Assembly: GCF_024298765.1 (NCBI RefSeq)
Contig: NZ_CP101210.1
DNA: 64,000 nucleotides
From: Escherichia coli
GTDB taxonomy: Bacteria; Pseudomonadota; Gammaproteobacteria; Enterobacterales; Enterobacteriaceae
Strand: one strand, 5' to 3'
Shown in pieces: positions 38,463-41,486 of this stretch (the first letter of the stretch is position 1; every line of letters starts with the position of its first letter). Under the pieces are notes generated by a model. It saw only the letters and a program-made list of their open reading frames with translations. It ran no database searches and was not told where the DNA came from. The translations under genes were made by a program, and so were the position numbers.

Positions 38463-38633
38463 TCAGGCTACAGCTTTAAGATTTGTCTGGAATACTTTGT
38501 TGCAATGAGGGCAGATCAAAAGGGCACCTTTTTGTACTCTTGAAAAACTGTGTTCTGACTCTTGGGTGCAGTTTGGGCAGGAACATTTAACGAGATAATT
38601 ACGGCGTGATTTTGAGTCTTTACGTTCTGACAT
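38463..38633 (-). CDS. Small zinc-ribbon protein, YdfK/YnaE-like (56 aa; family assignment tentative)
   Basis: MSERKDSKSRRNYLVKCSCPNCTQESEHSFSRVQKGALLICPHCNKVF with CxxC...CxxC. Confidence 0.5.
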   Translation of the reverse strand: MSERKDSKSRRNYLVKCSCPNCTQESEHSFSRVQKGALLICPHCNKVFQTNLKAVA

Positions 38634-40408: not shown

Positions 40409-40771
40409 GGTAATATTAAATCGGAACATTTACATCGCGGAATGTAAAATTTAAATAAAAAGGACTCTTCCATGAGCCAAAATTCCTGAAATCTTAAGGG
40501 TAAGATAAAAGGTCTTAATCAGAATGACACGTTTTATTAATAAATAAAGCTATTCTTTCATTGCTGTGTTTTTCTTTACAAAAGTAATCCTTGCTATGGG
40601 TGGTTAATCATGCGTTAATGGTGTTCTGGTTTGTTACAAATTTATCTGAAGCAGTCATTTTTATAATTTTATTATTTGTACCTCTTGAGATTTCCTTGTT
40701 GGTTTTTCTCTCTGATATTTTTTTTTCGGACCATTCTGCCCAAGGGCTAATTTCTTCAAAAGGTAATAATT

Positions 40772-40984
40772 ATGTCTAACAAAATGACTGGTTTAGTGAA
40801 ATGGTTTAACCCTGAAAAAGGTTTTGGTTTCATCACGCCGAAAGATGGCAGCAAAGATGTGTTTGTCCATTTCTCAGCAATTCAGAGCAACGATTTCAAA
40901 ACATTAACTGAGAATCAGGAAGTTGAATTTGGTATTGAGAACGGACCTAAAGGTCCTGCCGCTGTTCATGTAGTGGCGCTTTGA
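40772..40984 (+). CDS. cspI: Cold-shock protein CspI (70 aa)
   Basis: [70 protein letters not shown]. Confidence 0.95.
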
Positions 40985-41190
40985 GGTAGACAATATTACA
41001 AACCATATTCACTTTAGATGCCCGTGTTGTCATGGTTCCCAGTATAGAACATCATCTTTTGATGTTTCTGACATGAATCCTTTCGGGGCAAAATGTATCT
41101 TTTGTAAATCAATGATGATTACATTTGATAATATTTCACAATACTTAAATGCCAGCCGTCTGTCGTTGGATTTAAAAAAGTGAAAATGAA

Positions 41191-41211
41191 GGCTCCTTCG
41201 GGAGCTTTTTT
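41191..41211 (+). terminator. Rho-independent terminator
   Basis: GGCTCC-ttcg-GGAGC hairpin followed by TTTTTT. Confidence 0.55.
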
Positions 41212-41255
41212 GCTTGGTGTCTATTCGATGGATACTCACATACTACGGTAACATC

Positions 41256-41486
41256 ATGAAAAAAATCATAGTTTTTTTTAACTCTGAACCAGCAGTGGTA
41301 GTGTCAGCGATGACTGGAGTTAACACCATCATGCGTGAATATCCAAATGGCGAAAAAACACACCTTACTGTAATGGCCGCAGGGTTTCCATCTCTGACCG
41401 GAGATCATAAAGTCATTTATGTAGCCGCGGATCGACATGTTACTTCAGAAGAAATTCTGGAAGCAGCAATAAGGCTCTTGAGTTGA
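41256..41486 (+). CDS. Hypothetical 76-aa protein
   Basis: ORF MKKIIVFFNSEPAVVVSAMTG...; weak RBS; no family recognised. Confidence 0.3.
   Translation: MKKIIVFFNSEPAVVVSAMTGVNTIMREYPNGEKTHLTVMAAGFPSLTGDHKVIYVAADRHVTSEEILEAAIRLLS

Follow-up and report, generated by a model that had tools for sequence, protein, structure and literature searches.

The DNA analysed here (the window) is a stretch of 64,000 nucleotides from Escherichia coli contig NZ_CP101210.1, and the locus of interest lies within the Qin prophage, where the essD-ydfR-rrrQ-rzpQ lysis genes directly precede it. Over positions 40760-41260 (501 bases), the sequence is 100% identical to that of E. coli K-12 MG1655 and of many other strains, and the MG1655 RefSeq gene order across this interval is cspI, ynfQ, ynfR and ynfN. 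RefSeq places ynfQ, whose product WP_071524604.1 is called 'cold-shock protein' or 'cold shock small protein YmcF', at 40995-41183 in this identical K-12 sequence, so the cysteine-rich reading frame that follows cspI is an annotated gene. We hold with high confidence that this frame corresponds to ynfQ, a known gene of the lambdoid Qin prophage, with a 62-residue YmcF-like product, and that it is neither decayed nor ynfN. The ynfQ stretch was found in 2144 of 5426 complete E. coli genomes, and the features of the locus are collected in Table 1.

Table 1 Features of the cspI-ynfQ locus, with positions in the window.
Feature	Position	Strand	Basis or remark
cspI mRNA element, Rfam cspA thermoregulator	40625-41011	+	5' UTR, cspI CDS and first ynfQ bases
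cspI CDS, 70 aa, upstream cistron	40772-40984	+	ORF; RefSeq WP_000066495.1; CspA-family NCBIfam matches
Shine-Dalgarno GAGG of ynfQ	40983-40986	+	8 nt before ATT; overlaps cspI stop TGA 40982-40984
ATT start codon of ynfQ	40995-40997	+	First codon of WP_071524604.1
ynfQ CDS, 62 aa, YmcF-like	40995-41183	+	PF23641; 132 homologue clusters; pN/pS 0.16-0.24
First Cys knuckle, C9-P-C11-C12	41019-41030	+	C9, P10 and C12 invariant, C11 at least 90% (30 diverse homologues)
Internal ATG, Met27, not the start	41073-41075	+	ATG in 1 of 84 unique homologous sequences, usually AAA (Lys)
Second Cys knuckle, C34-I-F-C37	41094-41105	+	C37 invariant, C34 at least 90% (30 homologues)
ynfR, 21 aa, next small gene	41186-41251	+	RefSeq; starts 3 nt after the ynfQ stop
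Intrinsic terminator, UUCG-loop hairpin and U6 tract	41188-41211	+	Fold -14.9 kcal/mol, z -2.63

A sequence-only reading of this DNA had described a frame open from 40974 to 41183 behind cspI, and that description holds. TAG at 40971-40973 closes the frame upstream and TGA at 41181-41183 ends it; the two cysteine pairs, CPCC and CIFC, are 21 residues apart as read from the sequence; the sole in-frame ATG, at 41073, would give a 36-aa product, no other ATG, GTG or TTG being in frame; and a hairpin terminator with a UUCG loop and a U6 tract follows 4 nt from the stop codon. The same reading had offered a non-canonical start as one explanation, and this was borne out, as RefSeq begins ynfQ at ATT 40995 and half of the family has ATG at the corresponding codon. 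Its suggestion that the frame occupies the position equivalent to ynfN fails: ynfN is a separate downstream gene with ynfR in between, and its own position, 41256-41486, rules out that ynfQ is YnfN. Standard ORF finders miss ynfQ because of its ATT start, yet the gene can be recovered by reading the raw sequence.

The gene is thus already known, and only the association between ATT or ATC starts and an upstream csp stop, described below, may be new. Comparative proteomics at low temperature is said to have led D'Lima and colleagues to both YmcF and YnfQ in 2017; they reportedly mapped ATT starts for the two and presented them as cold-shock microproteins. The gene name needs some care, as 'ynfQ' in VanOrsdel et al. 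2018 (PMC6001520) denotes a different, 37-aa ORF between ydfJ and ydfK; the short RefSeq gene in the ydfJ-ydfK interval, matched by position, is now labelled ynfT.

At 70 codons, the open frame is not significant by its length alone. Its significance comes from conservation, for which the sequence-only reading had looked to related prophages: all 84 homologous sequences keep the frame open, with stops interrupting the two alternative frames in 81 and in 84 of them, and sequenced lambdoid phage genomes carry this stretch as well. YnfQ matches the YmcF-like Pfam family PF23641 from end to end (residues 1-62 on profile positions 1-62, 111.8 bits with a cut-off of 27, E 1.7e-32), and a search of 5.8 billion proteins returned homologues in 132 clusters, all with PF23641, nearly all from Enterobacteriaceae and most of them 62 aa long. 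A profile search of 1.84 billion representatives for remote homologues yielded 41 proteins, none tying YnfQ to another family; with only these 41 proteins retrieved, the family is narrow and has no detectable distant relatives. The PADLOC and PHROG libraries gave no match to YnfQ, and the model of the ECs_2282 family putative zinc-binding protein (NF047912) scored 17.8 bits, under its cut-off of 37.

Among 30 diverse homologues, residues F7, C9, P10, C12, G14, S15, Q16, R18 and C37 are invariant, and the HFRCPCCHGSQYR block and the second C-x-x-C are present. The most conserved block, I5-H-F-R-C-P-C-C-H-G-S-Q-Y-R18, lies wholly upstream of ATG 41073, and Met27 is variable in the same 30 homologues; in the alignment of diverse homologues, the N-terminal block IHFRCPCCHGSQYR shows little or no variation. 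This distribution bears directly on the reading in which the real product is the 36-aa peptide from ATG 41073 and the upstream frame is open by chance. Although ATG 41073 is the sole canonical in-frame start, we judge this reading very improbable, since the codon is ATG in just one of the 84 homologous sequences and usually AAA, no Shine-Dalgarno-like motif precedes it, the 26 codons upstream hold the family's most conserved block together with the first cysteine pair, and the PF23641 model covers residues 1-62 rather than the 36-aa part. Codons 19-26, upstream of ATG 41073, have a pN/pS of 0.24, and codons 27-45 one of 0.17, while these bases give 1.4-2.1 when read in either of the other frames; codons 19-26 fall outside the search pattern, so that their pN/pS carries no ascertainment bias.

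The same evidence weighs on the proposal, also made from the sequence, that the frame is what remains of a decayed gene whose start codon was lost. This allele does have no ATG, GTG or TTG before the first cysteine pair, as a lost start would leave it. Decay is nevertheless scarcely credible for a frame that is intact in all 84 sequences and under purifying selection, whose Shine-Dalgarno site and ATT or ATC codon are kept across genera, and which is present at an identity of at least 99% in 1574 complete E. coli genome records, is carried by lambdoid phage genomes and has a protein named in RefSeq. Family match, conservation, purifying selection and the comparison of start codons described next led us to reject both the 36-aa and the decayed-gene readings, leaving ynfQ as an intact gene for a 62-residue protein.

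For the start-codon comparison, homologous loci were collected with a degenerate DNA pattern for HFRCPCCHGSQYR, which gave 87 stretches in one-genome-per-species contigs. Across about 85 Enterobacteriaceae loci, the codon aligned with 40995 is ATG in 38, ATT in 37 and ATC in 6, and four further loci have an ATG one to three codons from the aligned start position. TAAGG or TGAGG stands at the same spacing in all 23 aligned csp-adjacent sequences, and the Kluyvera loci show ATG, ATT or ATC at the same site, all behind the same AAGAGGTATAT context. The interchange of ATG, ATT and ATC, always 6-8 nt after a Shine-Dalgarno-like motif, is the comparative pattern expected of a start codon at 40995. 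Between TAG 40971 and the first cysteine pair, no in-frame ATG, GTG or TTG was found. With ATT at 40995, GAGG 8 nt upstream and the cspI stop 13 nt upstream, the ynfQ start appears to follow the YmcF-like pattern.

Could translation begin instead at the second in-frame ATT (41007, Ile5), the only other near-cognate codon before the first cysteine? We give this very little credence, as ATT 41007 is 20 nt from GAGG and Ile5 is internal in those homologues whose ATG start sits four codons upstream. YnfQ and YmcF are among the few AUU-initiated E. coli proteins. Initiation at AUU is very weak in E. coli, so the yield of YnfQ per mRNA should be low. A start-stop pair, ATG followed at once by TAG (40968-40973, +), lies in the ynfQ frame within the 3' end of cspI. 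The corresponding ATG or TTG is open in Citrobacter, Salmonella and Trabulsiella, resulting in database entries of 70-71 aa that contain Ile at the true start.

A further reading concerns the end of cspI, where a programmed +1 frameshift would produce a CspI-YnfQ fusion. The cspI gene ends CUU UGA G (40979-40985, +), containing the CUU UGA of the prfB site, and a +1 shift there would lead into the ynfQ frame, open from 40974; moreover, a Citrobacter sedlakii locus (L040) has csp joined in frame to the homologue. In prfB, a stimulatory Shine-Dalgarno sequence lies 3 nt upstream of CUU. Such a sequence is absent here, and CUU UGA is not conserved, most orthologues ending CTC TAA, CGC TAA or GTA TAA, which are unable to slip, while half of the family consists of stand-alone genes with ATG and AGGAG. 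CUU UGA is what the cspI end shares with the prfB-type +1 frameshift, but the Shine-Dalgarno sequence and the conservation among orthologues are both missing, so its occurrence here is probably coincidental. Frameshifting at this site is therefore highly unlikely in our view, and we retain separate initiation of ynfQ at ATT 40995.

The mRNA context of ynfQ points to a cold-shock transcript. The Rfam cspA thermoregulator model (RF01766) matches 40625-41011 with 113.4 bits (gathering score 78; E 6.8e-30), along the whole model (1-428 of 428). A gap of 10 nt separates cspI from ynfQ, with no terminator in between and the first terminator placed after ynfQ, which argues for a bicistronic unit of both genes after the cold-shock leader of cspI. 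The core stem of that terminator pairs 41192-41196 with 41201-41205 and runs into the U6 tract at 41206-41211; a pattern scan listed this stem on the - strand. In transcriptome studies, ynfQ mRNA changes together with cspI, as does ymcF with cspG (PMC11228462; PMC11728337), and ynfQ would on this model be co-transcribed with cspI on cold shock. We also considered a hairpin predicted for this sequence at 40978-41021, which would sequester the Shine-Dalgarno site and the AUU by pairing the cspI stop, Shine-Dalgarno site and AUU with ynfQ codons 6-9. RNAalifold returned no consensus pair for this hairpin, and it was rejected as a conserved element, the single-sequence folds of 28 orthologous segments ranging from -2.7 to -14.7 kcal/mol.

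Downstream, the terminator hairpin of ynfQ coincides with codons 2-9 of ynfR. Detection of SPA-tagged YnfR, and its induction in the cold, have been reported (VanOrsdel et al. 2018, PMC6001520). Given the position of the hairpin within codons 2-9 and this reported cold induction, translation of YnfR would need either terminator read-through or unfolding of the hairpin by the ribosome. The next gene, ynfN (41256-41486, +), has 76 codons open from ATG 41256 and matches phrog_3425 over positions 1-76 of 76 (E 3.9e-53). The 51-aa form that is usually annotated matches phrog_4911, which is shorter, and in K-12 the gene bears the PGAP flag 'frameshifted'; ynfN may be longer than annotated.

Comparison of the homologous loci revealed that the choice of start codon goes with the presence of an upstream csp gene. 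Of 44 ATT/ATC loci, 34 have a csp stop 12-13 nt ahead of the start codon, versus 0 of 40 ATG loci (Fisher test of start codon against csp adjacency, p ~9e-15, a value uncorrected for kinship, the loci being phylogenetically related and the independent events therefore far fewer than the locus counts). Seen from the other side, all 34 loci with a csp stop at this distance start at ATT or ATC, and all 40 ATG loci are without an intact adjacent csp. The ATG loci mostly combine a stronger AGGAG site with the absence of csp (Enterobacter, Lelliottia), and some retain only a decayed csp 3' remnant (Klebsiella, Raoultella). Ten ATT/ATC loci also lack an adjacent csp.

Three sets of loci are worth recording individually. 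Enterobacter sp. Bisph1 has two members of the family (L003 and L004), one with ATG and a truncated csp remnant some 226 nt upstream of it, the second with ATT 12 nt after an intact csp. In the fused locus of Citrobacter sedlakii NBRC 105722 (match at 2926-2963, -), a csp without a stop codon continues in frame into a YmcF homologue with ATG; either the product is a Csp-YmcF fusion protein, or csp is disrupted there. Finally, a record titled Chryseobacterium sp. 18061 (L070) contains an enterobacterial-type csp-ymcF pair that is nearly identical to that of Citrobacter sp. 18056 from the same study (L069), and its contig is probably contaminated or mislabelled.

These data suggest a model in which ribosomes ending at the cspI stop would re-engage at the overlapping Shine-Dalgarno site. 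The re-engaged ribosomes would then initiate at the weak AUU, so that YnfQ would be made in a small, fixed proportion to CspI, which is very abundant. That the weak AUU or AUC start is a selected feature, tied to translational coupling with the upstream csp, is a tentative proposal drawn from this correlation between sequences, which we regard as plausible while falling somewhat short of probable. If true, termination-reinitiation would set a fixed low ratio of YnfQ or YmcF to Csp, and the link between start codon and csp adjacency, if upheld, provides a testable handle on the dosage of YnfQ and YmcF relative to Csp proteins.

At the protein level, four cysteines of YnfQ make up two knuckles (C9/C12 and C34/C37); conservation extends to Cys11 and His13. 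An AlphaFold2 model of moderate confidence, computed with the family alignment (mean pLDDT 72.5), has short strands at residues 17-19 and 32-34 and a C-terminal helix. The top structural matches, which are weak and without statistical support, are zinc ribbons, among them the TFIIE-alpha zinc finger and the N-terminal domain of MqsA; like YnfQ, these have a pair of CxxC-type knuckles, spaced by about 20 residues, on short beta-strands. A search by sequence for relatives of solved structure gave none below E 0.05. With its two cysteine knuckles, YnfQ is probably a metal-binding zinc ribbon; a 2026 review models it as rubredoxin-like with a metal site (PMC13348028). The conservation of Cys11 and His13, beyond the four canonical ligands, suggests that this site may not be plain Cys4 zinc.

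The segment CPCCHGS (41019-41039, +; residues 9-15) resembles CPCHGS, the C-x-x-H motif of Rieske box II. We examined YnfQ as a Rieske [2Fe-2S] protein and rejected this candidate: only CPC(C)HGS aligns with entries of the PDB (E 0.05-1.3), the C-x-H-x-G-C of box I is absent, and the second knuckle, C-I-F-C, is without His. Another small zinc-binding two-knuckle protein of Qin, YnfU (56 aa), is encoded at 38463-38633 (-), between cspB and the lysis genes. Kinship between YnfU and YnfQ was likewise discarded, as BLASTP gives no alignment between them and YnfU belongs to a different NCBIfam family, NF038384.

As to function, YnfQ probably takes part in the cold-shock response as a small partner that binds nucleic acids or proteins, as far as its gene context and residue composition can tell. 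Our best guess is a metal-stabilised binding module that would act alongside Csp proteins, a guess that takes its cue from conserved synteny and the many conserved aromatic and basic residues, and from these only.

The gene also travels with lambdoid phages. In Escherichia phage Tritos, cspI, a ynfQ homologue, ynfN and gnsB come right after the lysis cassette. The YnfQ homologue is unannotated in five of the nine phage genomes that encode it, a gap that likely arises since gene callers skip ATT starts, and the same ATT blind spot thus persists in phage annotation.

The closest known counterpart of YnfQ is its paralogue YmcF, encoded downstream of cspG in the E. coli core genome, which is likewise 62 aa long, is 65% identical and has the same cysteine knuckles, with divergence in the C-terminal tail. 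The resemblance extends to gene organisation, as ymcF (L018) has an ATT start, a TAAGG-type Shine-Dalgarno sequence overlapping the csp stop and the order csp-ymcF-gns. The two differ in their setting: the cspG-ymcF-gnsA module is chromosomal and present in 5416 of 5426 E. coli genomes, whereas ynfQ occurs in 2144 of the 5426, as cargo of a prophage or phage. Beyond this family, infC and pcnB are AUU-initiated genes of E. coli in which the rare AUU holds expression low, and the AUU of infC is part of IF3 autoregulation. While the infC AUU serves autoregulation, the AUU or AUC of ynfQ goes with a csp stop 10 nt upstream, and this comparison of sequence contexts suggests that the weak start of ynfQ would reflect coupling to csp rather than autoregulation.
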